A DNA stretch of 38,214 bases, from assembly GCA_049999805.1 (NCBI GenBank), contig JBNGIO010005464.1:1-38214 (forward strand). Reading direction: 5' to 3'. The position numbers and the translations under genes are program-made. The DNA comes from Folioceros fuciformis. Lineage: Eukaryota. Numbering within the stretch: position 1 is the first letter of the stretch; every line of letters starts with the position of its first letter. Under the pieces are notes generated by a model. That model had not been told where the DNA came from, did not search any database, and saw only the letters and a list, made by a program, of their open reading frames with translations. This document shows positions 12,464 through 37,900 of the stretch, piece after piece.

Positions 12464-16142
<3,679 letters not shown>

Positions 16143-16675
16143 CTCGTCACGTCAATGTCACTCGCCGGAGAAGCTCCGAACACAGGGAACGAATACAGAA
16201 CTTCTCTACGAACAGGGAGGTAGAGTGTGTACAGTGGAGATGTCATGCCAGATACTATTACGTGCGAACACGCCAACGACCTAAAAGATTAATGCTGTGC
16301 TTGAACCTTGGAAGTGGTAGACAACTTATAAATTTTATATGGCGGGTCCGGCAGAAAACTTTTTGNNNNNNNNNNNNNNNNNNNNNNNNNNNNNNNNNNN
16401 NNNNNNNNNNNNNNNNNNNNNNNNNNNNNNNNNNNNNNNNNNNNNNNNNNNNNNNNNNNNNNNNNTCATAAAAAATTTTAAATAGGTCATTCACACGGTT
16501 GGTTGAAATATCATCCGAATCTACATTTAAAACTTCAGTGGCACTAACCAAATTCTTTCAACACTATTCTACTAGCTTAGGGTTTTTGATTCACCCTTCA
16601 TGGTGGAAGGAGGTGCAGGGTGCAACATCCAGTTTAGGGTTCTTTTCCTTAGTGTTCCGTCCATTACTCTCTAGC

Positions 16676-16843
16676 TCCCTCCCTACCTACCTACTTGCGC
16701 CTCCTCCCTCCCTTCCTGCGCCTCCTCCCTATCTACCTACCTGCACCTCCTCCCTATCTACCTACTTGCGCCTCCTCCCTATCTACCTACCTGCGCCTCC
16801 TCCCTCCCTACCTACCTACGCCTCCTCCCTCCCTACCTACCTA
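16676..16843. repeat. Pyrimidine-rich minisatellite (ctacctacctgcgcctcctccct-like units) running into a 400-N gap
   Basis: Directly visible repeated units; gap 16844-17243. Confidence 0.8.
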
Positions 16844-19800
16844 NNNNNNNNNNNNNNNNNNNNNNNNNNNNNNNNNNNNNNNNNNNNNNNNNNNNNNNNN
16901 NNNNNNNNNNNNNNNNNNNNNNNNNNNNNNNNNNNNNNNNNNNNNNNNNNNNNNNNNNNNNNNNNNNNNNNNNNNNNNNNNNNNNNNNNNNNNNNNNNNN
17001 NNNNNNNNNNNNNNNNNNNNNNNNNNNNNNNNNNNNNNNNNNNNNNNNNNNNNNNNNNNNNNNNNNNNNNNNNNNNNNNNNNNNNNNNNNNNNNNNNNNN
17101 NNNNNNNNNNNNNNNNNNNNNNNNNNNNNNNNNNNNNNNNNNNNNNNNNNNNNNNNNNNNNNNNNNNNNNNNNNNNNNNNNNNNNNNNNNNNNNNNNNNN
17201 NNNNNNNNNNNNNNNNNNNNNNNNNNNNNNNNNNNNNNNNNNNATCCTATAGACCGGGCCCGAGGCCATCGCAACTTGCGATGGCCCCAACCTCGCTGGC
17301 CTCGCGCTTGGTCTGTTGCGCTCATTCTCCTTCATACAGCCCTGTGTAACGGCCCTCTGGCTATCGCAATCACCAAAGGTCTCAAGCAATCAAGCTCTAG
17401 CCCTCCCCTCCCTCCTACAGCATTTACATCTGAGGCAAGGTCAAGGCATCAAGCCTAGAGCTCGTTTGCCGACTAATCATGAAATAGATCCACTAAGTTC
17501 AATTGCCCATTTTGCTCACCACAGCTTATGGTTTCACACCATTTGCAATGCAAGCGGTTTACACCATTCACAGTACAAGCGGTAGTTCACATTATTCCCC
17601 TCAGTGCGTCTCACTCATGTCTCACAGTGTTCTGCGTAGCGCATCTCACTCATAACTCATACATGCTACCATCCTATCCCTAACAACCTACACACACTTC
17701 TACCAATGCAACTCAACGAGCCCACTTGCAGCCTACACTCACTTTGAATTTTTGTGGTTATCGTGAATCATTTAGTGATCCTTTGTTGTAGCTAGCAGAA
17801 CTTAAGCTCGATAGCTGAGGCCCCTTCCTGGATGTAATGTGCTAGATGCACACGGGTTGAGGACCATTGAAGTAGGTATCTTACTTGATTCACAGGGCTG
17901 AGGGCCATTCTGGTGTGTTAGAAGAATGCATCACTTGATCATGAGGAATTTGTAGGCAGTGGTAGAAAAGAAACCAAGCAAAGCTTAGTTTCTTAAACAG
18001 CTTTCTAATAAGGAGCACGGCTTCGCTTGGTTTCTGAAGTAGCAATTAGGGTTTTCTTGTTCATTGTGTCTGAAAGACGTGGCCATGGCTTAGGCTCGAT
18101 CCAAAACGTAGTTACAATTGAGGTAGTGATCGCTGCAATGTATAATGGCGAAGCCTGGCGGCTCTGCGGCCTTATGTGTGGATTGAAGGAACCCCGAAAG
18201 AACCCTAAATGAGCAAACCCTAACCCATGGAATGAATGGTGAATAATGGATGAATGTAAAATGAGAATTGTTTCTTAGAAAAAACTCTAAAGAGATGTGA
18301 GTGTCTGATGTGGGAAAGTCCCTTTTGGGACGATGTCCAAATTGGACAATCGCAAAAACCATCTTGGGGGATATTCCCTTAGATACCCGAGGTGAAAACC
18401 ATAAAATAGTGCACCTTCCCCTCTATCCGATTTGGTATGCCATAACATCACATGTTTGGTTTCTTAACAAGAAAGACACCCATTTTACAACCTTCAATGT
18501 AGTGTGTGGAGAAGGGGGCTTCAACATTGTGAGTTTCTCTTAGAATGGCCAACTACTCACTTTCAAGAAGATACCCTCTCTTTTCCTCCTTTCTATCCAA
18601 GGGGCGGCCTATCTTTGTACTTCCCACTAAGAAGTAGTACAAGCATGTAGTGCAAACTATCTACATGAACTCTACTTTACCCTAATCCTCTCATGCCATT
18701 ATTCCCTCTTAATTAGGGACGTGAGTAGTCTCCCAGCTTTTGGCTAGGCCTTGTACCTAGAAGGTTCAAATAACACTAGTTTCTTTTTCTACAAGGATGA
18801 GATTCTGTTTGGCACGGTCTAAGTATTTAGTTTTTTCCCTCCTAGCCTATTTGTTTTTGTAAACATACAAATGATTATGCAAAATGTTCAACAAGTTCAT
18901 AAGCACCAAGCGCGCTAGTTGTTGTTATCACTAAAAACAAAAAGGTAGCCCTAATTTACTCATAACCCTGAGCCATATAGCCAATGCAAGAAATAATTAA
19001 TGCCCAGTCGTCCTTGTATTAGATTCAAGCGCCCATGAGGACCTTGCTACTGACCTCGTTTTTGTCATGAGAGGTGTTGTTTTCAGGCTTCACTTTGGCT
19101 GCTGACCACTCTCCTTCTCCAATCACTCCACCTACTCATCCCACTACTTGCACCAGCCCTAGGGGGTTCTTGACACCTCATTGTCTAAGTGTGGGACTGA
19201 CCAACTATCCCATAGGAATTTTTGGGTATACTAGCGCTTACTAATTTTACTGACCTATTGATCAGATAGGTTGTTTGCAAGTCTACCATCTTACATCCTC
19301 AAATTCCAATAAGAGGTTAGCTCTTGCAACTCTCCACTAATGTTATGCTTGGGAGTTGAGGTAGTAAGAAAGGTAGACCATTCATCCATCCGTTCCAGAG
19401 AAAGAGAGGAAAATCCGTCACTTCATGGGAACGAAACCCAGTGTCTCAATGATAGTGGGATAAGTGTGGTCACTAGAGGTAGCCCAAGGCCTCTGTCATG
19501 GCATGGTGAGGGCCACGTGTTTTGCATGTGAGTACCCCAGCCAAGACGGATTAAAATAGCGAGTCATACAATCAACGGGACCAAATTTTGTGGTAGGTGG
19601 AGTTAGTGTAAGGCGGTGCTTCGTTTATAAGGGTGTGTAGAGGCCTAGCCTAGATGGATTTGGCTAATGTTCACTAATGATAGTGGCCAAACGGGAATCC
19701 CAAAGAATGTGCAGCGGGGTGACTGAATCGATCAAAAGCGCAAATGAAGTAACAGAGGTTGTTCACATCAGCCAAATTTGCTCCTAGCAGAAAGGCTACA

Positions 19801-19849
19801 CAACGAGTGCGGAGCGGGTGTCTGGAAGAGTACAAAGCTTGTGGGCAAA

Positions 19850-22800
19850 CAAGCATAGATAAGCAAGAGAGGAACTGATGGTGAAGACTTCGCAGTCATT
19901 CGATGGAAGCTGGGACATTCAAGAGTTGGCAATCCTATTGGAAATCGAACGAGAGGAATTGTGGAAAAGGTTGTGAATTGAATTCATTGACCTGTTGATG
20001 TGGTTGGCAGATTGGACGCAAGGAGGGAGCAACTTGGACTTCGACCACATGCCATATATCGTGTCCCATCGAGGAAGGGGATGGCGCAATGGTGATGCTT
20101 TGATCCGGTTGGATGAACAAAAGCACGCCTGCCCAAGGGAGCTAGGAGCTGGTGACTGCCCATCCTTTGGTACACAAGAGTAGGGGACAATTTGAGTGGA
20201 GTTGCAGCCCTATGAGGGCACTAGACTTCGAGGAGCCATGCCAAATGGAGCACGAGATAGTTCCTAGCAAGAATGATGTCTTCACTGGGCACCATGGGAG
20301 CATGTCTCTTGTTGACTTCAAAGAGAAATTTAGGTGATCACTAGACGAGACGATGCCTAGGTCCAAATCAGAGTTCACTCCAGAGATGGCTCTACTGGAA
20401 AATAAGCACCTTCCCGATAGGAGAAGTGCTCACGTGCTATTGAGACTCTAAAGAGAAAATCCTGGCGGACACATGTTTGGTGGCTAAAGGCAGGCAAAGC
20501 AAAGGGTTGATCAAAGGAGATGATGACGAGACCGGGTCTTTTGAGTTGGCTGATGTGATGACCAGTTTGGTGGATGAAATGCTTAGGAGGTTTGCTAAAA
20601 TGTTTCCCGTCTCGTTCATTGAGAAAAATACAGGAGCTTGCCAAGTTCTCAATCATGCCCAATAAGCCGCTGCGGTTTGCATACTTGAGACTACAGCAGC
20701 TGGTTAAGGACACGAGGGTCAAGACCACGAGAGAGGCGGCATAAATTTATGTTGCAACATTGTTAAGATGACATCGGAGAGTGATCCCCAACTTTCTACA
20801 CATGCTTCAAGGAGTGGGTTACGAGCTTGAACATGCATATGAGATGGTGGAGCAATCATGAAAGGTGTTGTTGTGACCTATGCGTACTGGGAGGAGCATC
20901 ATATAGGATGGGCGCACACTAACATGGCTGGGCTGCCTAAAACAGGAAGCAGGGGAGTGTACCAAGAGCAACACCCTAGTGGAGGGTAGCGGAAACAAAC
21001 TCCACCAAGGAGAGAGTAGCTAGTAGTGTAGCAATGGTGAAGGTGGCGACTAAGTGCTTGAGATGCAAAAGGGCACACAAGACGGGTGATTGCAAGTATC
21101 GGAATGGGGGGCCGAAGGAGAAGAAAACATGCAGGGCATGTAGAAAAACGGGACATTGAAGTTGCATGCTAGCAAGCTCACCCAGAACGTAGACCAAAAG
21201 GGAATGGTGCAAACCTATGGGGGGCTACACACGCAAAGCACTATTGAGTGAGGTCCATAAACTTCAGGAGCAGTTGGCTATGAGTGTGAGCATGAATGCA
21301 CCCAACAAAATGATTGAGGAAGAATCTGATGATAAAGGGAATATGCATGCCTGGTGGCCGACAAAGTGTCTGAGCAATGGCATGTGGATGAAGACTTTGG
21401 AAAGGGAGTGAGAAGAAAATTAGAGGAACCTTGCCCAACAGCCAGCATGTCGAGATCCTTCAAACTAGTGGAGGACATTGAGTTAGGCTCACCCGTGAAG
21501 AGCAGGGTAGGGAAAGATGAAAAGGCATTGGTCGAGATGATGAACACACTGATAATGAGCCTACAAGACCTTGGGGTCAAGACCCATTCACTCAAATGGG
21601 TGGTGCAAAGGTGGAAAGTGAGGGAAGATGACACCACATCTATGAGTGGGCTAACCAGTTTGTGTGGAGAGCATCTTAAGCTCGAGAACAGGGGCAAGGG
21701 CAGAATAGCCATGGTGAAGAATGAAGATCGACATGTGATGTTCAACAGCTTTGCACCAAAGCGGGTGTTGGTGGATACAGGTGCCGATCCAGTCCTGTTG
21801 GGAGCTAGGTACAGACAGTGCTGAAGCTATATGGTGATCGATTGAAGCCAAGTGACGTCAAGATAGCGACATCCGCAAGAACCAAGCAATAGGTTTTGGG
21901 GATAATAAAGGATCCGATTGACATAGAACTCAAACCAGGAACATCAAAGGCTTGCATCGTGAAGGTGCAATGTCTAGTGTTGGATGCAGAGAATTATGAT
22001 GTCTTGCTTGGGGCAGATCCCATGCATAAACCAGCAATGGGGGTCGATCCCCTGCACACAGAGGCATTTTATCGACCGGGTTGGCAAACCGGTGATTTCA
22101 GTCATGTAGTAAGGACTCCTCTGGATATGAAAAGGCATGGAGGACAATCAGGAAGCATGCTCACACTATGGACAAATGTAACTCAAATTGTGCACAAATG
22201 TGTGTTGTGCGAAGAAACACAAGAACTAATGAATGACAGGTCAGTCGATATAAATGAAAATGCATTTGGTATGGTCATACGAAGCAGTGTGGGACTTGAT
22301 TAGGCATTGGAGACAGAACGACAAAGACTACAAAGGCAAAGGCCTTGGGTGCCTTCGAGCACGTGCCCAGAGAGCAGCTTACCAAGAGGAATGACGATTG
22401 TCGAGAGTGAGTTCCGCATCGACAATTAAATAATATCCTGGAAACCGAGCAGCCAAGGAATTCACATCTTAGAGTTGTGTTCAGGAATCAGTAGTGGGTT
22501 GGAGGCAGTGTTGAGATGCAGGATATGAATGCGAAAATATACGTGTGTAGAGATAGATCAAAGAACCAGTGAAGTAGAAAAGGCAAGGATTTTGTGGATG
22601 CAAAAGCTTTTCCCTGAACAACTGAACATGGAGGCCATGAGGGGATGTGAGAGTAGGCTGAATGTGGATATCAAGATGGTGGGGAAGCGACAACTGGAAG
22701 CAATGGGTTGCACCGTGGACATGGTCATAGTGGATGGGAGTGCCAAACGTTCTCCAAGGCCGGATGAGGCCTGGGAGACGGGTTGTTGCAAGCCTATGGT

Positions 22801-23254
22801 TCTCATACTCGAGGAGGTTCAGCGATAGAATCCAAGATGCTGGTATGTATTGGAGAACGTTTGTGGAGCATTCGACAAGAGAAGGCATGTAAGGGCCGAA
22901 TATGAATGAGAGAGACAGTGGCTAGGGGATGAGTTCATCATGGATGTTGTCCAAGCAAGCTCGTATGCACATCAATTATGCAGTTTTTTGACAAATGCTG
23001 TAGATGTTTCTGTGTTGCAAGAGCATCGAAGCACTACAGTGCCTCCGGTATAATATGTTGATCACATACTAGAAGAGGGCCGGAAGGTAAAACCAGTCAA
23101 AAGAGATGACAGGCTACCAGATTTCCCAGTCAACTTGGTGGGTGGCGCGAGAAGAGCATGGCCCACACTTGTTAGCAAATCATGGTCGTATGCTTTCAAG
23201 AATGGAGGAGCTGGTATGCTCTTGGATAGAAAGGGGAAGAAGTGGGCAAACCAA
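19850..23254 (+). mobile_element. Ty3/gypsy-type retrotransposon A (gag with two CCHC knuckles, protease, DNMT), degenerate and truncated by the element B LTR
   Basis: Knuckles CLRCKRAHKTGDC and CRACRKTGH at ~21055-21170; protease RVLVDTGADPVLLG (~21760-21805) then LKPGT...NYDVLLG...YRPGW; DNMT motifs follow. The 5' boundary is a guess and no LTR was identified. Confidence 0.8.
22439..23254 (+). pseudogene. Retrotransposon-encoded C5 cytosine DNA methyltransferase domain (degenerate, C-terminally truncated)
   Basis: Motif I ILELCSGISSGLEAVL (22466-22513); motif II-like YTCVEID; motif IV VDMVI/GWECQTFSKAG (22732-22764, local frameshift); motif VI YVLENV (ENV 22853-22861); motif VIII DVVQASSYAHQLCSFLTN (22943-22996); then PVN...WPTLVS...AF. 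Same frame as the protease ORF 21896-22303. Confidence 0.85.
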
Positions 23255-23782
23255 TGTCATGTGAGGCACACAGCAGACAGTCAAGCTGGTGATAAGTGTG
23301 GCAACCTCCAACCAGGAGCATCAGTTGAATAACACAGCACGTACCAAGGAAAGTGGTAAGAAGGTTAGCATCACGCAAGGTGCTGAGCACTGGGATAATG
23401 TGGAACCCCCATCCACACTCTCGGTGTGAGCCCACGGGTTTCAGCAAGGCAGCTGTAAGCATGCCCTAATCCACCTTCTCTAGTTCTTGGTGTTTACTAA
23501 TTACTGTTTAGCGTTTGCTAATTGCCAACATTCAAATGGCATTATCCTAAACTAATCCTTATTTAAAGGATAATTGTTTCATGCTGCTTACTCAACCTTA
23601 AGCTCACCTTTGGTATCGTGACAGCTGTCGTGCGAGGCACAGAGCAGATGGTCTAGCTAGTGATAAGTGTGGCAACCTCTAGCCAGGAGAATCAGCTGAA
23701 TAACACAGCACATACCAAAGAAAGTGGTAAGAAGGTTAGCATCATGCAAGGTGCTGAGCACTGGGAAAATGTGGAGGCCCCA
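23255..23782 (-). repeat. 3' LTR region of element B, containing two 157-bp direct repeats (23255-23411 and 23626-23782)
   Basis: Both copies start TGTC and end CCCCA on +; the right copy abuts the polypurine tract. Confidence 0.75.
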
Positions 23783-23798
23783 TCCCCCCCCCCCCCCC
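23783..23798 (-). promoter_or_regulatory. Polypurine tract of element B
   Basis: Run of 15 G plus A on the minus strand immediately before TG, about 60 nt after the pol stop. Confidence 0.75.
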
Positions 23799-23877
23799 AG
23801 CTAATGAGAATGGCTGGCAAAAAGAAAGGGCTCGTCCACGTCGGGTACCCATGCCCTCAGCTAGCTGTAAGAACAAC

Positions 23878-24012
23878 ACACTGGGGGCAATACCATAACT
23901 GTTCAGGTACCTCAGTCAGCGGCGGATCCAAGCAAAACAAATGGAATCTGCCATTGCATCCATCACAGAGCAGCATGAGCCCTAAATCATCTACCCTACG
24001 ACACACCTGGCA
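23878..24012 (-). other. PHD finger (C4HC3) at the integrase C-terminus
   Basis: CQVCRRVDDLGLMLLCDGCNGRFHLFCLDPPLTEVPEQLWYCPQC; all eight zinc ligands present. Confidence 0.92.
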
Positions 24013-26009
24013 AGGGTAATCCTCCGAAGGAACCCAATTGGCTGTGACAATGGTGGGGTCCAAGTTGGGTAGGTGGCAGGGGGCACAATTCTTGGTGTGA
24101 TATGTAATAGTCCTGCCATCTGCCCCCTGTAGCAGCAGCACGCTGTTAGGTCTCACTTCCCTGATCCGCAGCATATGGCGACTAGTGTTGGTGTCTAGTG
24201 TATCACCAGTCTATCGCTGCAAATACACAAAGTCCCCAAATTGGAACTTCTTGAGTTTAAGCCTGAAACTTCCGCTCCTAGTATAGGCATACCTAAGAGT
24301 GTCCCTGTGCTGTGCGATGTGCAAATTTGCCATAGCTATGGGCATGACCTGCCTAAACATCGTAGCCCTCTCCCCAATGACTTTGGCCCATACAGCCGGA
24401 CTATCTAAGTCCACCACCTGCTGCAGTTGCTTGGCGATGGAGCTAGGTGGCATTGGCTCACGGCCAAAAAGTAAGTAATACGGTGAGAAGTGTGCCAAAG
24501 AGGCATGCTTACTCATCCGGTATCCCATTGTGATGTAGGGCAAGGCGAGATCCCACTCGGTCTAAGGCATCTGCAGACAGAGCTTCCTCAAGCCCTTCTT
24601 GAGTGTCTGGACTATTTGCTCTGCAAGACCATTAGCCTAGGGATGGTCTCTACTTGTCCTACGATGATCTATTAACGCTGCGTCCAATAGATCTTGGAAT
24701 TCACCCTGAATTCTGACCCCTGGTCAATTAAACATTCTGCACAGCTATCGAAATGGCTGAGTACATTCTGCAAGAATGCTTGAGAGGTGCTCCTAGACAT
24801 CTTGTCAGGCAGCACGACAGCCTCCACCCACTTGGAGAAATGCTCCATCATGACAAGCACGTACACATTCCCACGTGTAGTGCGTTGCAGCTCCCCAATC
24901 AGGTCAATCAGGTCACATGACCATCTGAAAAAGAGGCCCATGATAGGCAAAGGATGTAGCTCCGGGTGCTGGATGGTGAAGGAAGTCTTCACCCTGTCAC
25001 ATGGCTCGCAGCAGGCAACCCAGTCACGCACCTGACCATGCATCCCATGCCAATAAAACTAAGGGGATAGCAGGCTGTAAGTGTGTTTGACGCCAAAATG
25101 ACCCATATCATCGTGCACCTTACGAATTAGTGCAGCTCTGTCAGCTGGTGGCGGCACCAAGCGTTCAACTCCATGTGCCAGCTTCCTAATAACATAACCA
25201 TCCTGCCAATAATATGTGGCAACACGATGCTTGACCTGTTCAGCTATGGTTGGTGGCAACGTTGCATCCAGCTGTCCTATTTGTGGATACTGTAGTGTGT
25301 AAGGATCCTCCCAAATGTCCTTAGCCAGTCGGGTGGGTACAGCTATGCTGCCACTATCGACACACACCACGGCCACCAGAGCAGCGACCTTAAATGGTTC
25401 ATAAGGCTCATAATCCTGCCTTGCCTCGGTGATGTCCTGATAGCTGCTGTCTGGATTCTTGAAGAGAGTGTCTGCATTCTGATGCTTCAGACCTAGTCTG
25501 TGAACCACCTCGAAATCATAATCCTGAAGAATCATGGCCCATTGAGCTAGCTTGCCGCTGAGCTTTGTGTTGGCTATGAGCCACTTGAGGAACTGGTGGT
25601 CTGTCACCAGCGTGAATGCCTGTCCATAGAGATAAGGTTGGAAGTGGCAAACTGCCCAAACAGCGGCGAGGCGTTCACCTTCATAACTACTGTAATTGGC
25701 CTTCACCTTGTTGTTGCTACGGGACGTATAGGCTATCACTCTCTCATTCCCTTCTTCATCATGCTGAGCCAAAACTGCCCTAAGGCCCAAGCTGCTCCAC
25801 TCTATGTGTAGCACAAATGGCTGCTTGAAATCAGGTCTAGCCATCATAGGTGCAGAAGTCAACTTGGATTTCAGGGTATCAAACGCCTCCTCCATCACCT
25901 CAATCCAAGTCCATACCACGTCCTTTCTGAGCAGGTCATTGAGAGGCTTGGCAATACGGCTGAAAGTCTGGATATATATCCTATAATAATTGCAAAGGCC
26001 AAGGAATGC

Positions 26010-26190
26010 TGCGGAGCTCCTGTAAGCGATGAGCAGCTATCTGCCGTGCTTCCCCGCTGCTGTCATAGTATACCTAACGCCTGATAGGGAGGCCTGCCTT
26101 AAGCAAAGCCTCTAGGCTTGTACAAATGCCGCCAAACAGCTCCACGAGAAAAAGGCCGGTGGCTGGGATAGGCCAATCAATCACCTGAGA
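26010..26190 (-). pseudogene. N-terminal fragment of a C5 DNA methyltransferase domain in element B
   Basis: IDWPIPATGLFLVELFGGICTSLEALLKAGLPIRR*VYYDSSGEARQIAAHRLQELR (VELFGG at 26128-26145); in frame with the protease ORF 26512-27279. Confidence 0.8.
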
Positions 26191-28276
26191 CTTGACAACA
26201 TGCTCTTGCATGGGATCCTTGAGTCCTCGCTGCAACAGAGCTTGCACCTACTGGACATGCTTGGAATCATCCTGCAGCACTCCCTCAACCTGTGTGGGAT
26301 GGTCAGCGGCCTTGATCAGATCTATCAATCTGCATGTGGCTGTGGTGTTGTTGGAGTAGTTGTCACAATGCTCCTCCTCTTGCTCTCACTCTAGGTGGTC
26401 CTCATCCTGCAAATGGTTGTTGGGCAAGGGTGTTCCCTTACTGACCAGGACTGCTATACAGGCTTGTTGCTCTACAAGTGTAGCTGTGTCAGCCTCTGAC
26501 ATGTCATGCAACTAAAGGGGTAAGTGTGCCACCCTTCTCCTTCCTTGCTTCCAATCTGGACAGTAATACGCCTGCTCTGTCCAGTTGTCCACACTTAAAC
26601 CTGGTGGAAACAAAAATTCTTGCCCTAACAGCACGTCATAGTTTGTGGTTGTTGTCACTAGGCATGGAAGACTCTGCGTCATGGCATCTGGAGTGCCTGG
26701 CTTGAGTGTGATATCCACAGGCTTGACAGTCGCTCCGGCGACTGGCTCAATGGCTCCTGACGCTGTCCTTATGTTCCAAGGAGAGCTCTTAAGAGTTGAA
26801 CCATCAAGGTTGAGCCTGGCAGCTAATGTCTTGCCAATGATCACTAGTTTAGCACCAATGTCGAGCAATACAACCCTTGTGGCATACCCATTCACCGTAA
26901 TATGCCCCGCATCATTGTCAACTAGTGCATTGCCGACTTTGACTACTAGGCGGTTGGTGGGTTGGATCCTAGGAGAGCTAATGGGTTGAGGAGGCTGCCT
27001 TCCAGCTGCTGCAACTTCAAAAATGCTTCCAGCTACTGTCTCCTTGGCGCAAGGTGAGATGCTACCAGGTACCACCCACCCATTTGGAGCTAGTGGCCAA
27101 CATGACCCTCCTGAAGACAATATAGTTGCTTGCGCTGGTTGCAATTCCTTGGGCAGATGCTCGTGTCCTAGCCCCATGTCTTGCAAAGAAAATAGAGGAA
27201 TGCCAGTCAGTTTCTCAAATAATTGTTCCACATTGAAGGCCCTGGGCATCAAGTAGACTGGCCCACTGGCTGACACCAATGGTTGCGGCGGAGGCCTGTC
27301 TACTGTCTATGGCCCTCCTGCCAATGTGGAATGCTCTTGCCCTCAAACTGGGATTGCACTTCTTGGTGACAATGGTGCAAAAGATTGGGGCATGATCGCC
27401 CTCACTCCTTGTTGCCCGAGTGACTGGCCCTGCTGTTGTCTCCAACACTGGTGGGTATAAATGTTGCCCTACCCACGTCTGTGGCGACTCAGTAGTTGTC
27501 ATCTCAGCCTCCATCCAGTTGGCGACACACACTTGATGTGGTGAGCCGTAATCCTCCTCCTTGTCTCTGACCAGTTCAACAACAGTGGTTGGTTTGGGTG
27601 AGGTTGCGCCACTACTAAGACTGGCTGTAATCGCGCCCAATTGTGAAGATAACGTTGCAACAATGGCTTCTAGGGTAGATACCTTCTCTGCATTGGATGC
27701 AGCCTTAGCTTTGGCCTTGTCCCTTTGTTGTCGGCTGCGTGAGACCCCAACACTAATACTAGCTTCTGTGGTAGTTGTACCTCCAGCATTGACTGCTGTA
27801 GTCCTTGTCCCACTGCTTGCATTTTTCTGAGATCTTCTCTTTGCATGCTTCTGAAAACATATTGTGACCACATGTCCATTCTTGTGACAATGTGTACAGC
27901 ACAAGCCTTCCGGTGGGCATTTGCAAGCTGGGCTCAAATGCTCAGAACTACCACAGTAGTTGCACAAAGAAGCAACTATAGCTGCGGCTGCTCCAGCCTT
28001 GACAGGCTTGGCTTGCTGTGACTTGGCCCATGAACCTGTTGCAGTAGACCCCTTTGTGGAGAACATAGACTGGTAATGAGTAAATGCCTTGGAGTGTTGT
28101 GAAGCATATGCAGAGAAAGCGATCTCCTTGTGTTCATCTTCTTCATGTACTTACTCCAAGGTATACCTATCACCATATTTATCCACCAACGCTGTGATGA
28201 GCTGAAAGTGAAAGAGTGGGTCTTCTTCCAAGGTTGTTAGGAATTTCTCCGCTGCTTCCTAGTTCGTTAGCATTCC

Positions 28277-29495
28277 TGTGAAGGATTGCTACAGGAGCTA
28301 CATGGTGAAGGAGGAGAGGAGAAAGAGAGGTCACACTCTCACATTCAGAGTCTCAATATGCAAGGGAGCTCAAGGGGGTATTTATACCCTCTAGAAGAGC
28401 TCCCTAGGAAGCTTCACAAGAAGTGCACAAGAAGCTGCGCAAAAAGTTTCTTATAGAATAGCTTAAGCTAATCTAAACTAATGGTACTTAACTAGACACT
28501 AATCTTAGACTGCACATTAGTCTAAGCACATTGGGCTTTAATAACCCTACAACCTCCCACTTAAAGGCCAATTTACCTTCATACGAGAGTGGTCTACCTC
28601 ATGCCCATGAGTGTTCGAGCTCGTGCGAATTGCTCTGTAGAGAGCCCCTTGGTAAGAACATCTGCAGGGTTCTGACTAGTGTGAACTTTAACAAGCCGTA
28701 CCCTCTTGTCTTCCAACACCTCTCAAATGAAGTGATACTTCACTTCCACATGTTTGGTCTTCGCATGAAACACTGGATTCTTCACCAATTGAATAGCACG
28801 CTCGCTATCACAATGCAACACTGGCAGCTCAACCTTGATCCCCAAATCTTCCACTAAACGAGCAAGCCACAAAGCTTCCTTGCAAGCCTCAGTCACTGCA
28901 ACATACTCGGCCTTTGTGGTAGATAGCATTATGCACGATTGCAAACGAGATAGCCCTGAGACTGCCCCTCTAATGCACATCAAGACATAACTTGATGTGG
29001 ACCTCCTTTTGTCCATATCTCGTGCGTAATCAGCATCCGTGTATCCCACTACAGATGCATCTTCACTACCAAAACATAAGCACAAAGCTTTCGTACCATT
29101 CAAGTACCTCATAACTCCTTTTACTGCCTCCCAATGCTTCCTGCCAGGGTTTGACATAAACCTGCTAACCACTCCCACTGCAAAGGCAATGTCAGGACGT
29201 GTAGCAATCATTGCATACATCAAACTCCCTACAGCTAATGAATATGGAACCTTCTCCATTTCAACTTTGTCCTCTGCAGAACTTGGGCAATCCTTGTTTC
29301 ACATATGGAGGCAACGGGGTACTCAATACCTTCCCCTTCTCCATATTGAAACATTGAAGCACCTTATTAATGTACTAAGTCTAAAACAAGTAAAGCAAAC
29401 GCTTTTGTCTGTCTTGACAAATACGCATGCCAAGAATATGCCAAGAATATGTCAAGAATATGCCAAGAATATGTCAAGAATATGCCAAGAATATG
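28277..29495 (-). mobile_element. Ty1/copia fragment (RT C-terminus, RNase H, PPT, 3' LTR ~28277-28551) inserted into the gag of element B
   Basis: VPYSLAVGSLMYAMIATRPDIAFAVG, GYTDADYA, STTKAEY, TKHVEVKYHFI, NPADVLTK; PPT gtgggaggt before TG at 28551; TATAAATA in the LTR. Confidence 0.9.
29427..29492. repeat. 11-bp tandem repeat x6 (atgYcaagaat)
   Basis: Directly visible; derives from the copia RT HILGMRI codons. Confidence 0.9.
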
Positions 29496-29872
29496 GTGCA
29501 TAGGATGCTACATATATAGCCTTCAGGCCGGGGCAACCCTCGATAAGGTAAGCCTTAGTCTCAAGAGTGCAATATCTTGGCATATCCTGATATATCCTAA
29601 TAACACTTAGGTGGTAGATAACTACGAGTTCAATATGGGATAATCTACACTATCCTATACAGAAACAGGAGAAGCAATCTCACTTAGGAAAAATGATCAC
29701 ATGTATCAAACAAGCAAAACTCTTTTTGTCTTGTGTCATGTGCTATGGTGGTTAGGTATTTTGTAGTCATGTGTCTTTTCACATCTTGACTTTCTAACCC
29801 TAACTAAGCTTATTTAGCTTAACCTAGTTGTTGACTAGCTGACGCTAGACTATTCCTAGGCTTCACTTTGCA

Positions 29873-30371
29873 CCCCCACTTAGTCGTAGCCGTCAGTCTT
29901 TACTTGATCACTTCATCCTCTTTCTTCTCGGCTTCAATGTCAGACCTGTGTTTCAAGCCAAGTCCAACAACATGCAAGTTATGTTTTTCTTTGGTTAGAG
30001 CCTTGGTCAGTAAATCAGCTGTATTGTCATCTGTGGGGATGTCACTGAGACTGATTGTCTTGTTGGCTATCGCATTTCTTATGAAATGCTGCTTCACCTC
30101 CACATGTCTGGTTCGAGCATGTGAGATAGGATTCCTAGCTATCGCAATGGTGGACTGGTTGTCGCAATACATCGGCGTAGGATCCTGCTGCTGGTAACCT
30201 ATAGTCTCCAAGAAATTCCGTAGGTGCATGACTTCTTGGGCTGCAGCTGTAGCTGCTGCATACTCGGCCTCCGTGGACGATAATGCAACCACGGTCTGCT
30301 TCTTTGAGGACCAGCTGACGAGGCCCCCACACACCTTTATACAGTATGCTGAGATGGACCTGCGTGAATCC
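29873..30371 (-). mobile_element. Ty1/copia RNase H fragment with PPT
   Basis: [46 protein letters not shown]; aagtggggg PPT; ends at an N-gap. Confidence 0.9.
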
Positions 30372-30471
30372 NNNNNNNNNNNNNNNNNNNNNNNNNNNNN
30401 NNNNNNNNNNNNNNNNNNNNNNNNNNNNNNNNNNNNNNNNNNNNNNNNNNNNNNNNNNNNNNNNNNNNNNN

Positions 30472-31190
30472 CTATTCCTAGGCTTCACTTTGCATCCTAA
30501 GTGTTGCATGCTCTTAATAACAATTCAGTTAGAGCTTGATTTCTAACACTCCCCCTCAAGCTCAGACTATTTGTAACACTCCAAGTAGTTCACGAAAGTG
30601 TAAGAACTTATCTCTACTTAGTGACTTAGTAAATATATCTGCTACCTGGTCTTCGGTCTTCACGTGCCGAAGATCTATCTTCTCAGATAATACCACTTCC
30701 CTGATGAAATGATAATGTACTTCTATGTGCTTCGAACGAGCATGAAACACATGATTAGTAGCCAACCTCATGCTACTCATGTTGTCACAGTAGATTGTGA
30801 CCTTGTTGTTCACTATATTTCCAAGATCATGTAGCAACTTCTGCAACCAAGCTGCTTCACACGCTGCCATTGCAGCTCCTCGATACTCTGCTTCTGTGCT
30901 TGACAAAGCAACTGTCGGTTGTTTCTTGCTTTGCCAGCTGATCATACTCCTTCCCAAACTGAATGCATATCCACTGGTTGATCTTCTATCATACGCACAA
31001 CCAACCCAATCAGCATCTGTATATCCTGTCAGTTCAAGATGCTTCCTATGCTCATAAAGCAATCCAAACTCAGTAGTTCCTTTCACATATCTCATGATTC
31101 TTCTAACTGCATCTAAGTGCGGTTTCCTTGGGTTTTGCATGATTTGACTAATCAATCCTACTGCATAATTTAAGTTAGGACGTGTAATAG
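30472..31190 (-). mobile_element. Ty1/copia RT C-terminus/RNase H, PPT (30549-30560) and start of 3' LTR
   Basis: [45 protein letters not shown]; gagggggag followed by TGTTAG at 30548. Confidence 0.9.
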
Positions 31191-34100
31191 ACTTGGAATA
31201 GCGCACTCTCAGCCACGCCCAATCACCAACTTCATATTGTTCATGTTGTTGCTTCTTGTTGGCATGCGTTGACCTTTGATGGTTGATGGCTCTCATTCGC
31301 TGCATAGCCTCTGCTAGGGTTTTCCCCATCTCTTCGGTGAGTTCAATCACATATTGAGGGACTCCTTGCAGCACCACTTGACACCTCGTGAGTCCCTTGC
31401 TACCATTACTCATACATAACTATGCGTCGAGCCTCCATCAATGAGGAAGGACATTGACCAGTCACCAAGCCTGCCCTCCACGGTCATGGACTGGTGCTTC
31501 AAGTGCTCAAAAGCCCTTTCTTCTGCCTGCTTCGAATTCTGCAAGCTCTCGATGTCAAGTTGTTGATTGACGTTGTTCTGGCCCTGCAGCCTCTTCAACT
31601 CATCACTCAACTCAATCTGCACCCTTGTGCAAGCATTTATCTTAGCAACACCTTGCCTCACAGTGCATCCAGCGTGCTTGACACCCTTCAGCCATTTACC
31701 ATACATGGTGTTGTACGGACATGCCCTCGCCACATGTTCTGGCTTTGCACAGATGAAGCACAGGCCTTTTGCCATGAATTCTCTTTTTTCACCCTCACTT
31801 CGCTGCTTGAACTCAATGGGTTTCAATTCCTTTTGCTGGCTGATTTGTGCAACTGACCTTGCAGGTTTGCCTCTAGGCCTCCACGTAGGGGCAGCTTGGC
31901 ACCTTGCCCCTTGAGCATGGTATGGCTTCTGCTGATGGCTTGTGGCCCTTGCCATTGCTGGTTGCACTGCAGACAAACACAACGCAGCTGGAGCCTTCAC
32001 ACCAAAGTGTTCGATGTCCATGGCAGCTTGCATAGCTTCCTCCACTGTTTTGCAATGTCGTTGTTTGATCCCCAACTTGTACTCAGGTTTGATTGCATGA
32101 AAATACCTAGCCAATTTGGCTTCTTGCTCCAAGTCTGGCAGTTTCAACATGGCGTTCATGAACAGCAAGTGAAACTCCTCCAGCGAGCTTGTGTGTTTCA
32201 AACTGTACCAGGCTGACCAACATCGCTCTTTGTGGTCCTTAGGCAAAAAGGCTTGCAATAACTTTGCCTTCATCACCTCCCATGACATGATAGGTACTTT
32301 CTCCCCACGTTTGCTAGCCTCCTTTCGATTTTCCCGCCAAGCTCTAGCCAAATGGCTGGTGTAGTGTACAGCTAAATCAATCTTCTCCTTCTCTGACATG
32401 CTCACAGCTTCAAAGTACACTGAGAAGGCCTTGGTCCACTCTTGTAACTTTGTTGGAATCCTGTCAGTGCAACTCAGGGTTTCGAACTTGGCCCTCTTGC
32501 GGAGATCGTCGTTCTTCGTTGATTTTGGACCCTTGTCAAAAAGTAAGCCTTCTCGCATTGCCATGTCATGGTCATCATGTGCCTGAGCTCTCTCGTGATC
32601 GGCTATCTGTAGCCTGCTTGATATTTCAGCTATCTTGGGATCCTCCTGCTCCTCTGGAGTGAGCCCTTGAATTCTAAAGTGCTTGAGAGTTGCTGCTGAT
32701 GAAATTGCAAGGTGTGCAGGCTGGGCAGTCTTATTGGGAGTCACTGTTGAGGCCGGCTGCATGCTATTAGGGATAGGCTCGTCACCTTGATTTACTTGTG
32801 GTTCTCCTGGACGGTGGCTCTCATGACCTCTGGGTGGCCTCTGGAGTGCCTGAACAAGCATGTCTCTCAAGGCTTGCTCGCGCTCAGCATTCTATGTAAG
32901 CAACTCTGCCACCATCTTGTCATGTTGGGCCTTTTGCTCTTCTAACATGTGACGCAAAAATTTCTTGGGCCTCAGCTTCCATACGAGATCAAAACTCTAC
33001 CGCGCTTTGCTCTCCCCAAGGTGTCTGATTTGGAAGTGTCTCCTCGTGATAATCTCTGGCAAGAACCTCCTCCATCACGGGTGTCGGCTCTCGAGTTGGT
33101 TCAGGTTCACTTCTTCCCTTGTTGGCAGCTCTAGACTTCTCTCCCCGTGCTCTAGTCGTGGTAGTGACGCGTTCCTGCTCTGTTTACGTGCTCTTCTATT
33201 GTCGTCGAGGTTTCTTGGTGCCAATTGTGGCTGCTAGTCCTCCCCTCTTCCTGACTCCACCACCTCTAATTGCAGGATTTGGCTCTGAGTGTCCGGCTTC
33301 GACTATGGGCACGGTTCTTTTTCTCAATCGTGAAGAAATTCGACTAGCCTCCGTGGTAACGCAATCGACCAACCAATAGATCTATCTTGGTGCCCGCAAT
33401 GAACCAGGCCTTTGTTCCAGGGAAAGAAATTTCCCTCCCACAAGCACTAACTACCCAATGCTTCACCTTCCACCTTTGGACTCTTGGGACACTCCACTAA
33501 AGATGAACCAGCTTCCGAGCAGTGGTCAAGCTTTGCAGCACTCACGAGCTCCCTCGTCACTGACCTTTCCAAAGCTCTTTCCTCCTGATTGCTCGCACGA
33601 ATAGCAAATTCCTCCTTGACAAGATCCAAGACTTTCTGGCTTCTTGAATTTAATCTCTACATTCCATGAGAACTCGTATTGTGTCCACAATGCACACTGT
33701 CCCCCCAAACTTTGAATAGTCTGCAAAGGCTGTCAAGAACCACTCTACCCCGCCTACATATCTCGCATCACTGCCCCATCACTCATCTTTCATCCCGAAC
33801 CTCAAAATTCCAAGATGGCAAATCTCCACGAGCATACGTCCTCTCCCAAGTATGTTGCTCCCTCTTGTCCTAGCCACGAGCTCCACCGCGGATCTTGCAA
33901 TCTTGAAATTCTCATCCCTCCCCCAATCGCTTGGCTTTGATACCAAATGTAAAGAAAAGTCGGTCAGCCAACAAGCCCATGGCTCCCAAGGAAAACAAAC
34001 AAGCCCCCCACATCCGTCCTCATTTGGGTTCTTGACCCCAATTAGTTGACTTGCTTCTTGGGTTAGTTACTAACTCGAGTTCGTCTAACTTGAGTTACTT

Positions 34101-34288
34101 GACCCCTAGTCCTAACCCTAACTACCTAGCTGGTTCTCTTCTAAACTCTAGCCATGCCCTAAGCTGATATAGTTGCAGCCAATTTTCGTACGCTAGCAAC
34201 TTCATCTGGGCACTGATTAGGTGCCCAGTCCCAGTTCTCATCAAGCTAGCCTTAGCTCGTAAGCTCACGGCTATAGCTAGCCGTGACA
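31191..34288 (-). mobile_element. Ty3/gypsy element, internally deleted (5' LTR 33948-34288, PBS 33934-33945, gag, protease start, integrase tail)
   Basis: 486-codon gag ORF 31410-32870 with CFICAKPEHVARAC, ending [12 protein letters not shown]; then [38 protein letters not shown] tgtaaag...cgtgaca inserted in a copia gag. Confidence 0.88.
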
Positions 34289-35479
34289 CCTTGTGACTTT
34301 GCTTTCCTTGAAAAAAGTTCCGAGTCACCTTTGTGTTCATTTTTTAATGAATGCACCAACTTCTCTTGTAGAAGCAACCCAACCACCTCTCTTATTGTCA
34401 CTTGTTTATTACTTGAATGCATCGCTGCTGATATCCTAAAAGACACCACAAATTGCATGTATGTAGATGGTAAACTATTCAATAACACTATAATACTCCT
34501 TCCTTCAGAAGGTTTGATGTTTGCAGCTTGCATTTGATCAACCAAGTTCTTCAACTTGTTGACGTGTTGTTGAATCATGTCCTCTTCAACCATCTTGAAG
34601 TTGGACAATTGTTGCTACAACAACATGCCACTCACCATACTTCTTTTTTTGTAAATATGGCAAAGGGTAGTCTATGCTTTCTCCGATGTTGCACACTCAC
34701 TCAATTGAGAGAGTATGTCATTAGACACATTAAGAAGGATTGCATTTAATGCTCGTCCATCCTTATCAAGGTCTCCTTCGCTGGGTGTGTCTTCGAGGCC
34801 CTTGTCAACGAATTTCCATACTCCTCTCTTAATGAGAAGCATCTTCATCTTTAAATGCCATAGTGTGAAGTTCTTGCCTCTAAACTTCTCCACAAGCATG
34901 TCTCAATGAAACATGTCTCCATGCCTGTTGACGCCATCTATTATATCCTCTCGAATTTCAACCTCTTGCTATAGAATGAATACTATCAATACCTTTACAA
35001 CTACACACGAGCTTGTACAAGCCCCAAGCTAAGAGCTATGCAATTGTTTGTAAACTCTCACAAGCACAGGGCTAAGAGTTTATTCCTTGCACACAAGTTC
35101 TTTCTAGCACTTTGCTAAGAACTATGCAAAAGGTGTTGACACAAGTGCACAACTATAATAGCCAAGAGAAAACTACTAGGCTCTAGAACATGGCTCTGAT
35201 ACCATGTTAGAAATATACGGATCTAGCCTTCACTGAGAGGACATATTTTACAAGACACAGGAGTGTGAACAACATGTAAGAGCTCAATGAGCTCAAACAC
35301 TGATGCTTATCTATTCACCACTACATTATAGAGCGTCGCCATGTCCCCTTATATACTAGAGAGTTTAGGGTTTAGGGTTTAAACCCTAAACCCACCATGT
35401 TTTTATCCTAGACACTATCTATTCTATAGTAATAAACTTGCTTAGACTACAAGCAAAGTTCTTCTACCACTCTCTAATA
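34289..35479 (-). mobile_element. Ty1/copia 5' part (LTR ~35205-35479, PBS, gag), interrupted by the gypsy LTR
   Basis: VEKFRGKNFTLWHLKMKMLL, IVLLNSLPSTY; perfect PBS TGGTATCAGAGCCA (35191-35204); LTR tgttagaa...ctctaata (alternative right end 35554). Confidence 0.88.
35368..35393. promoter_or_regulatory. Palindromic telobox pair in the copia LTR
   Basis: gggtttagggttt|aaaccctaaaccc, a perfect 26-bp palindrome of plant telomeric repeats just upstream of a minus-strand TATATAA. Confidence 0.7.
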
Positions 35480-36719: not shown

Positions 36720-37900
36720 AAGCTGTGAAGGTAGGGCAATATTTTGGCACAAGGCAGCCTCATATTGTCTAAAGCAAGGTATGTTGTACAAGCTAGGGCC
36801 CAACGGTAAGGTGTGACGTTGTTTGGAGATGAATGAGGGAGTTGTGGTGACAAAAGCTTTGCATGCTAAGGAGGCAAGAGGCCATTACTCAATACCTATC
36901 ACCATCAAGAAGATTTTGGACATAGGATTTTGATGAAGCACCATGCAAAGGGACATTTGGGAATTTGTAAAGAGATATGATGCTTGTCAGCGGGTAGGGA
37001 GGCCCACATTGATGACTAGATGGTCTTTGACTTACATCATACCCCTAGCTCTATTTGAGAAGTGGAGGATAGATTTTGCAAGGCCAATTCATCCCCCTAC
37101 TCGTTGGACAAGGAAGCAGTACGTCCTGGTGGCTACAAATTACTACACCAAGATGGTGAAGGCAGAAGCTACTTGTTGCGATGATTCCCTTATAGTAGCA
37201 AAGTTCTTGTTTGAGAACATCATCACGTGCTACGAGTGTCCCTTGGAGTTGGTTAGTAATAGGGGGACACATTTCGTAAATGAAGTCATCACCTCCTTGA
37301 CCACATACTTCAACATCTGTCATCGAAAGACCACCCCCTACGACCCGAAGGTGAATTGACTGACCAAGAAAACTAATGGCCTTTTGGAAACCATCTTGAC
37401 CAAGGTGATTGTGACTCAAATGTATGACTTGGACACCAAGCTCCATTTAGCACTTTGGGTCTACAGAACAGCAAAAAGGATTACCATTAAGAGAACACGT
37501 TGCTTCCTGACATATGTTATGTCATCCGCCCTCCCTATTGAGTTTGAAATTTCCACTCACCGCGTCATGGAGGAAGCTAGGCTCCTAGTGAGGGAGAGCC
37601 AAGAGGTTAGGTTGGAGGCTTTCATCACTTATGAAGAGGAGAGGAAAGGGGCCTTGGAGGAAACTTACCACATGTAGGAAGCATCGCCATGACGATAGGT
37701 TGAGGAACAAGGGGATCTGGTACTACTATATGATGGTAAGTACGTGGATTTTCTAGGTAAGTTGCGGTTGAGGTGGATAGGTCCCTACAAAGTGGAGGAA
37801 GTGTTTGCGAATGGGTCTGTCCAATTGAGAGTGCTGTATGAAACTTGTTGCCAACAAGAGTAAATGGTTGGCATGTTAAGAAGTATTATCCACTATGAGC
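36720..37900 (+). mobile_element. Ty3/gypsy (non-chromovirus, Tat/Athila-like) integrase relic
   Basis: ALHAKEARGH...DACQRVG, KWRIDF, SNRGTHF, TTPYDP, ALWVYRTA, GDLVLLYD...WIGPYKV; possible PPT/LTR start near 37932-37945. Confidence 0.85.

Follow-up and report, generated by a model that had tools for sequence, protein, structure and literature searches.

A probable, decayed Gypsy-DNMT3-type retrotransposon relic in a scaffold of apparent land-plant origin

Retrotransposons with a methyltransferase and the place of element A

Dinoflagellates and one charophyte alga are known to harbour retrotransposons that encode the very class of enzyme by which such elements are normally silenced. The closest described system is KnitGypsy-Dnmt3 of the charophyte Klebsormidium nitens, whose cytosine methyltransferase is of the DNMT3-type class (de Mendoza et al. 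2018, PMC5890265; here and below, the part of that paper drawn on in this study). In the same source the methylation of an element's own cDNA is put forward as a hypothesis, activity is shown only for the DIRS enzymes of Symbiodinium, and in yeast no signal was obtained from the K. nitens Gypsy enzyme, an outcome called inconclusive. A preprint of May 2026 (10.64898/2026.05.21.726589, again for the part drawn on) names, apart from the DNMT4-related EpiLTRs that it describes itself, only the streptophyte 'Gypsy-DNMT3' and those of Symbiodiniaceae as earlier transposon-borne DNMTs. Here we describe a locus in the 38,214-nt sequence JBNGIO010005464.1 (assembly GCA_049999805.1, Folioceros fuciformis), the whole of which we refer to as the window. 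Positions 22418–23254, together with the gag and protease remains upstream, very likely represent a decayed relic of a Gypsy-DNMT3-type retrotransposon, judging by sequence homology, which we refer to as element A. An earlier note on this DNA, made from its letters alone, had proposed a retrotransposon with its own methyltransferase at this place, and the published background that it gave on such elements agrees with the literature (PMC5890265, in part).

Compared by published description, KnitGypsy-Dnmt3 and element A are alike in having a non-rearranged DNMT3-type domain within the Pol open-reading frame (ORF) of a Ty3/gypsy element and a streptophyte host, whereas element A is dead, truncated and found in an apparent land plant. 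Polyproteins from Closterium and from metagenomes (P0012, P0015, P0151, P0004, P0145 and others) run protease (PR), DNMT, reverse transcriptase (RT), RNase H (RH) and integrase (INT), in some cases followed by a PHD finger; these have the same order as element A, give it its best hidden Markov model (HMM) score and group with it in the tree. The signature GWECQ / ENV / AHRxR / AWPTL..SYAF is common to both, but the polyproteins share only 29–35% identity with element A and have open frames, whilst its frame is broken. A set of chlorophyte RT-RH-DNMT-INT-PHD polyproteins has a homologous DNMT with ECQ in motif IV, and carries a PHD finger at the integrase C-terminus, as does element B, a divergent relative that adjoins element A in the window; they differ in having the DNMT between RNase H and integrase, and they fall on the opposite side of a supported tree branch. 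Amongst solved structures, the closest relatives are the host enzymes DNMT3A/B of animals and DRM of plants (E 3e-23 and 4e-16), to which motifs I, IV, VI, VIII and IX–X of the family profile align. Unlike DNMT3A, the retrotransposon family reads Glu-Cys-Gln in place of Pro-Cys-Asn, has no PWWP or ADD domain and no DRM-type rearrangement, and sits inside a Pol polyprotein. SymbioDIRS-Dnmt3 and SymbioLINE-Dnmt of Symbiodiniaceae and the EpiLTRs are likewise retrotransposons with a cytosine methyltransferase, but these are a DIRS element, a LINE element and a DNMT4-related module joined to an adenine methylase, all in unrelated hosts (10.64898/2026.05.21.726589, in part).

A search of full-text literature, with subscription journals and supplements outside its scope, returned no land-plant report and none of the chlorophyte RT-RH-DNMT-INT-PHD group. 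Element A is probably a non-functional member of Gypsy-DNMT3, and the first to be observed in a land plant. That such a relic lies in a land-plant scaffold suggests that the lineage made it across the transition to land, or re-entered it, and the family census given below argues against a capture specific to K. nitens. As element A is dead, its value is as a marker of the lineage and of a genome in which intact elements can be sought.

Anatomy, identity and decay of element A

Element A comprises the following features.

20276–23254, plus strand: element A, probable 3′-truncated Gypsy-DNMT3 relic (gag knuckles, protease, most of the DNMT); single-copy sequence starts at 20276, homology ends at 23251–23254
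21055–21156, plus strand: gag zinc knuckles, CLRCKRAH..C and CRACRKTGH, frame 1, located by tblastn with P0126
21705–22120, plus strand: aspartic protease of the Ty3/gypsy type, located by tblastn with P0012 and P0004
22418–23254, plus strand: decayed DNMT3-type C5 cytosine methyltransferase domain, motifs I–VIII only; main frame 2, with five stops, two frameshifts and one stop in the shifted piece
22469–22507, plus strand: motif I, LELCSGISSGLEA, the S-adenosylmethionine-binding loop
22547–22558, plus strand: motif II, VEID
22732–22764, plus strand: motif IV, GWECQTFSKAG, frame 1 (GWECQ codons at 22732–22746)
22850–22861, plus strand: motif VI, (L)ENV, aligned to the invariant Glu column (E137 of the first alignment row)
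22961–22981, plus strand: motif VIII, SYAHQLC, the counterpart of AHRxR in the family, with neither Arg retained (codons CAA and TGC)

To identify the methyltransferase, the frame-2 translation of 22445–23254, 270 residues with X at stops, was searched against a library of 1.84 billion representative proteins. It matched 314 proteins at E<=1e-3, 120 at <=1e-10 and 0 at <=1e-30, the best match (E 1.0e-27, 113 bits, 33% identity) covering query residues 1–267; an E-value of 1e-27 in a library of this size excludes chance matching of motifs. An HMM of 18 PR-DNMT-type domains, built with the window excluded, scored the frame-2 reading at 203 bits over positions 6–293 of 354, and placed the frame-1 piece SGWECQTFSKAGXGLG at positions 110–125. 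In a MAFFT alignment with 17 relatives, and in this HMM, all five motif strings fall on conserved family columns, in agreement with the earlier note, which had read C5-DNMT motifs at these same places. For example, LELCSGISSGLEA of motif I aligns to the family column ELFGG..AGLEA, itself aligned to LSLFDGIATGL of DNMT3A. When a profile of 18 rows (A1, the window and 17 short relatives) was searched against PDB sequences, DNMT3A ranked at the top (3.1e-23), followed by DNMT3B (9.6e-20) and DNMT3C (8.2e-19), with lower scores for tobacco DRM (3.9e-16), DRM2 (1.6e-13), M.HhaI (1.8e-8) and DNMT2 (about 7e-4). The retrotransposon family is thus classed as DNMT3-type, on the ranking of profile scores and not on a phylogeny with host enzymes.

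The DNMT lies directly downstream of the protease, on the same strand as both the protease and the gag knuckles. The knuckles match P0126 with E 2e-6 (47% identity over 34 aa); a Pfam scan of the 59-aa knuckle ORF alone gave no match, nor did one of the protease ORF pieces, and the capsid part of gag was undetected when the N-termini of relatives or the gag of element B were used as queries. The VDTGAD of the protease, at 21771–21788, is in frame 0, whilst a frameshift near 21825 puts the remainder of the protease in frame 2. The DNMT shares frame 2 with this remainder, and the earlier statement that it continues in the frame of the DTG has to be corrected accordingly. The proteases of elements A and B share 38% amino-acid identity over 99 aa.

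Between 21833 and 23254 the main frame is interrupted by seven stops, at 21890, 22301, 22427, 22526, 22826, 22907 and 23051, of which the last five are in the DNMT domain; a TGA at 22765 lies in the frame-shifted piece and is additional to these. GWECQ is enclosed by a compensating pair of frameshifts, at about 22725–22731 and 22770–22790. These counts correct the earlier description of a few stops and one local frameshift. The catalytic Cys codon of motif IV is kept, as had been claimed, yet it is read in frame 1, out of the main frame, and is soon followed by the TGA at 22765, so that motif IV is not preserved in frame. The Pro of the Pro-Cys dipeptide is Glu in this motif, as in most family members. 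Motif VIII is decayed, as already observed in the earlier note, and CpG transitions in CGA and CGC could have given rise to its CAA and TGC codons, in keeping with a CpG observed/expected ratio of 0.32–0.45 over 20–28 kb. Homology to the family stops at HMM position 293 of 354, with the last ~60 profile positions gone; the family columns ERExAMGF and GxxMD of motifs IX–X, in the C-terminal lobe, have no counterpart in the window in either the alignment or the HMM, because homology ends at 23251–23254. The string LVSKSWSYAF was considered as a DNMT3A-like motif X and rejected, as the alignments show that the true motif IX–X columns are missing from the window.

The copy is dead: it is broken and truncated, and cannot methylate anything. 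Beyond this, no LTR (long terminal repeat) pair or inverted repeat was found in 17244–30371, no repeat pair flanks element A, and no RT, RNase H or integrase of its own is present on the plus strand downstream of 23254 in the window. The sole plus-strand integrase, at 36880–37539, is 24% identical to that of P0012 and belongs to another gypsy lineage. The earlier suggestion that the lineage could have methylated its own cDNA or insertion sites is not supported for this copy, and self-methylation of cDNA stays a hypothesis even for intact relatives.

Upstream, the single-copy stretch of element A has its edge at ~20276, where it adjoins an unrelated high-copy repeat. A high-copy repeat at 19434–19871 has a depth of about 4,000. 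Read depth, given here as summed contig depths at a likeness threshold of at least 80% and not as a strict copy number, is 9–20 over 19872–22937, matching that of the exact contigs (9–14), and rises at 23255 to 200–310, then runs at 77–357 across 23814–28193, within element B. At this threshold element A is single-copy. The contig at 17244–30371 contains no N, and was rightly called gap-free in the earlier note. Contigs of two public runs match 20276–23309 with 0 differences and 0 gaps, so the stops and frameshifts were reproduced by a second assembler, though these runs may be the source sample of the window itself and do not count as independent sequencing.

Overall, element A is with high probability an old, single-copy, non-functional Ty3/gypsy fragment, whose ancestor would have had the order gag-PR-DNMT-RT-RH-INT. 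In the intact ancestor, going by the domain order of the relatives with open frames, the DNMT would have been translated within Pol, between protease and RT. It would then have been present beside RT and integrase in the particle, and could have methylated new cDNA or the integration site. In chromoviruses a chromodomain at the integrase C-terminus targets integration; the PHD finger that element B and most relatives carry on their integrase could act analogously, directing insertion through recognition of histone tails. Element A itself was cut off at 23254/23255, where the multi-copy family of element B begins, and decayed from then on, with CpG-type changes among the lesions, in a CpG-depleted genome.

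Relatives, domain orders and element B

Stored relatives were grouped according to how their matches to protease, DNMT, RT, RNase H, integrase and PHD are arranged. The DNMT follows RNase H in 150 of them (the RT-RH-DNMT-INT-PHD order being present in 103 proteins), and follows the protease or precedes RT in 21. P0012 exemplifies the second arrangement, with zf-CCHC, protease, DNA_methylase (978–1226), RVT_1, RNase H and integrase, to which P0145 adds a PHD finger. Most relatives come from metagenome contigs, and no K. nitens sequence was among the matches. The named hosts of the post-RNase-H group are the chlorophytes Scenedesmus sp. PABB004, Haematococcus lacustris and Monoraphidium neglectum, whilst all six named members of the PR-DNMT group are Closterium species, which are streptophyte algae. 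A second search for relatives gave 149 matches, alongside the 314 of the first. Some of the RT-RH-DNMT-INT-PHD gypsy polyproteins also bear a G-patch. In a language-model atlas P0151 falls in a PF00145 cluster in which Streptophyta is commonest, and element B in RNase H clusters; we treat both as generic leads only.

Element A scored 195.9 bits on an HMM of the PR-DNMT group vs. 163.4 on that of the post-RNase-H group. A tree was built from 61 rows, made up of 44 of the 150 post-RNase-H sequences (40 of them random), 16 of the 21 PR-DNMT sequences, and the window with its out-of-frame stretch X-masked. In this tree the post-RNase-H group forms one side of a branch with a Shimodaira–Hasegawa-like approximate likelihood ratio test (SH-aLRT) support of 85, and element A joins P0151 and P0004, both of the PR-DNMT type, at SH-aLRT 87. 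Motif IV in the family is mostly Gly-Trp-Glu-Cys-Gln, in which Glu replaces the Pro of the catalytic Pro-Cys dipeptide: ECQ is found in 102/150 and 12/21 members of the two groups, PCQ in 20/150 and 4/21. AHRxR is kept in 143/150 and 17/21. As Glu-Cys-Gln is common to both groups and to the window, the retrotransposon DNMTs would have one origin, and not a fresh capture of a host gene. The two orders, taken with Glu-Cys-Gln, point to a single old acquisition in the green lineage, presumably followed by domain shuffling.

Element B lies immediately downstream of element A on the opposite strand and comprises the following features.

23255–23414 and 23626–23785, no strand assigned: two 160-nt direct repeats, 89% identical, at the multi-copy 3′ end of element B; they mark the cut-off of element A
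23255–28279, minus strand: element B, divergent relative, delimited by ORF scans and tblastn; boundary with loose ends at 28279
28150–27215, minus strand: gag
27075–26518, minus strand: protease
26157–25987, minus strand: DNMT, N-terminus only (first ~57 residues)
26009–25389, minus strand: RNase H, after a jump into the RT tail, the RT core being deleted
25355–24274, minus strand: integrase
24210–23857, minus strand: PHD finger at the integrase C-terminus (PF00628, E 1e-13)

Element B repeats the order of protease then DNMT, with about 580 residues missing relative to P0012. It shares 29% identity with element A over 56 residues at DNMT motif I. Its DNMT piece scores 56.9 bits on the chlorophyte-type HMM vs. 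45.3 on the PR-DNMT type, although at 57 residues it is too short for this to be interpreted. Judged by these sequences, elements A and B are best read as two old lineages of one kind. The arrangement of element B, together with that of the 21 PR-DNMT relatives, bears out the earlier reading of a C5-DNMT relic inside a Ty3/gypsy pol that is not a one-off capture. The family of element B has a roughly 10–20 fold depth at likeness of at least 80% and long open frames, and the stop of element B at 26074 is Tyr in all other contigs, so this plant may still harbour intact copies whose transposon-borne de novo methyltransferase works. A wider proposal is that gypsy elements combining a DNMT3-type domain with a PHD finger are no oddity of Klebsormidium but form one old lineage spanning the green line as a whole (chlorophytes, Closterium and land plants), active in land plants until fairly recently; it is tentative, and we lean towards doubting it.

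A copia-type repeat at 28194–29945, with an RNase H ORF on the minus strand (28723–29298), abuts element B at 28279 and has a summed depth of 15,000–35,000 vs. ~10 for unique sequence. Further along, at 30562–32891 on the minus strand, a 493-aa open gag-like ORF (31410–32891) lies beside a copia RNase H ORF (30562–31419).

Host genome and alternative explanations

The genome that carries element A was assessed by a host marker gene on another contig of the scaffold.

12467–16142, minus strand: 12-exon DEAD-box RNA helicase gene, intact-looking

The N-terminal exon of this gene matches a liverwort, Ginkgo and Wollemia, and its C-terminal exon shares 83% identity with Ceratodon, 80% with Physcomitrium, 78% with Calypogeia and 77% with Sphagnum, with lower values for Diphasiastrum (70%), Mesotaenium (69%) and Ginkgo (65%). 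Summed over the whole gene, tblastn scores were 944 bits for Calypogeia fissa (liverwort), 930 for Ceratodon purpureus (moss), 906 for Physcomitrium, 894 for Sphagnum, 894 for Diphasiastrum, 883 for Ginkgo and 806 for the alga Mesotaenium. In the helicase tree the window gene falls within a clade of all named land plants (SH-aLRT 100) with Mesotaenium outside, its place within that clade being left open by the tree. From these matches and the tree, the genome of element A is likely that of a land plant, and probably a non-seed plant. The earlier note had placed the lineage in a land-plant-like genome, which holds in so far as the helicase groups with land plants; the gene is, however, on a different contig, parted from that of element A by two N gaps. 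A proline-rich tandem repeat, LPTYLRLLPPYLPAPPPS-like in translation, occupies 16650–16843 and runs into the 400-N gap.

Several results weigh against the interpretation of element A as a Gypsy-DNMT3-type relic in a land-plant genome. Pfam gave no match on the window translation itself (0/3 whole frames at E<=1, 0/4 pieces at E<=10), and phmmer against PDB sequences returned no DNMT, only two malate dehydrogenases at E>1, so the identification rests on homology by way of intact relatives. A DNA_methylase match had been proposed in the earlier note as the check on its reading, and the lack of one as grounds for giving it up; the window translation has none, but 9/10 scanned relatives pass the PF00145 cut-off of 22 bits, six of six in one scan (63.7, 34.3, 30.5, 45.5, 46.1 and 26.7 bits) and three of four further ones (P0151 60.1, P0004 32.4 and P0015 31.4, with P0145 below at 20.5). 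We infer the label 'LTR retrotransposon' from the gag knuckles, the protease and the relatives, since element A has no LTRs, RT, RNase H or integrase. Its join in the DNMT tree is unstarred and its branch is long (1.77), which makes its exact placement weak. With regard to the host, the N gaps at 16366–16465 and 16844–17243 stand between the helicase and the contig of element A, no nucleotide repeats common to the contigs of the window were found, and relatives with a named host are all algae.

These last points would be expected if the contig of elements A and B were not land-plant DNA at all, being instead an algal contaminant, a mis-scaffolded piece or a horizontal transfer from an alga, and the single-copy state of element A, as well as the lack of any relative above 35% identity, can be counted on the same side, as can the algal hosts named (Closterium spp., Scenedesmus, Haematococcus and Monoraphidium). 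However, the gap-free contig also carries the copia repeat at its depth of 15,000–35,000, which is easier to reconcile with the main genome than with a minor contaminant; G+C content and CpG depletion are similar along the whole window, and in the same runs the element B family reaches its depth of roughly 10–20 fold. A decayed lineage that has long been resident would likewise be expected to show low identity to algal sequences. We consider a foreign origin of the contig improbable. Far less credible still is the idea that the domain is a piece of a host DNMT3 gene that an ordinary gypsy element picked up on a single occasion, or that happens to be next to a protease. Non-seed land plants are reported to possess host DNMT3 genes, and amongst solved structures the profile is closest to DNMT3A/B, but the best matches of the window are retrotransposon polyproteins with the same protease-DNMT order, it has the GWECQ of the family in place of the Pro-Cys of canonical enzymes (SPCN in the aligned DNMT3A), it shows no intron-like interruptions, and the arrangement recurs in element B, whose protease is only 38% identical.

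A relic of the Gypsy-DNMT3 type is thus our preferred account of element A, and within it the domain might have been inactive even in intact ancestors, as a pseudo-enzyme or as an RNA-related or structural module of Pol. Replacement of the Pro of Pro-Cys by Glu in most family members would fit this, as would the lack of methylation by KnitGypsy-Dnmt3 in yeast (PMC5890265, in part). We nevertheless regard inactivity as unlikely: the catalytic Cys, ENV/ENT and AHRxR are conserved in the family, the yeast result was called inconclusive by its authors because human DNMT3B failed too, and the K. nitens copies have Ka/Ks < 0.2 (both from PMC5890265, in part).

The relic itself may now be a target of methylation. 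Compared with 17244–30371 of the window, run X3, from the same sample as runs X1 and X2, differs mostly by C>T (636 places) and G>A (388), a bisulfite-type pattern. All 13 of the X3 changes listed as complete are in CHH context, 12 of these being found only in X3 and one, at 17550, partly in X1/X2. Over element A, the differences per X3 contig vs. CHH cytosines were 78/79, 100/102 and 98/107. This suggests, from counts and not from per-site calls, that the host now methylates the relic in CG and CHG contexts.

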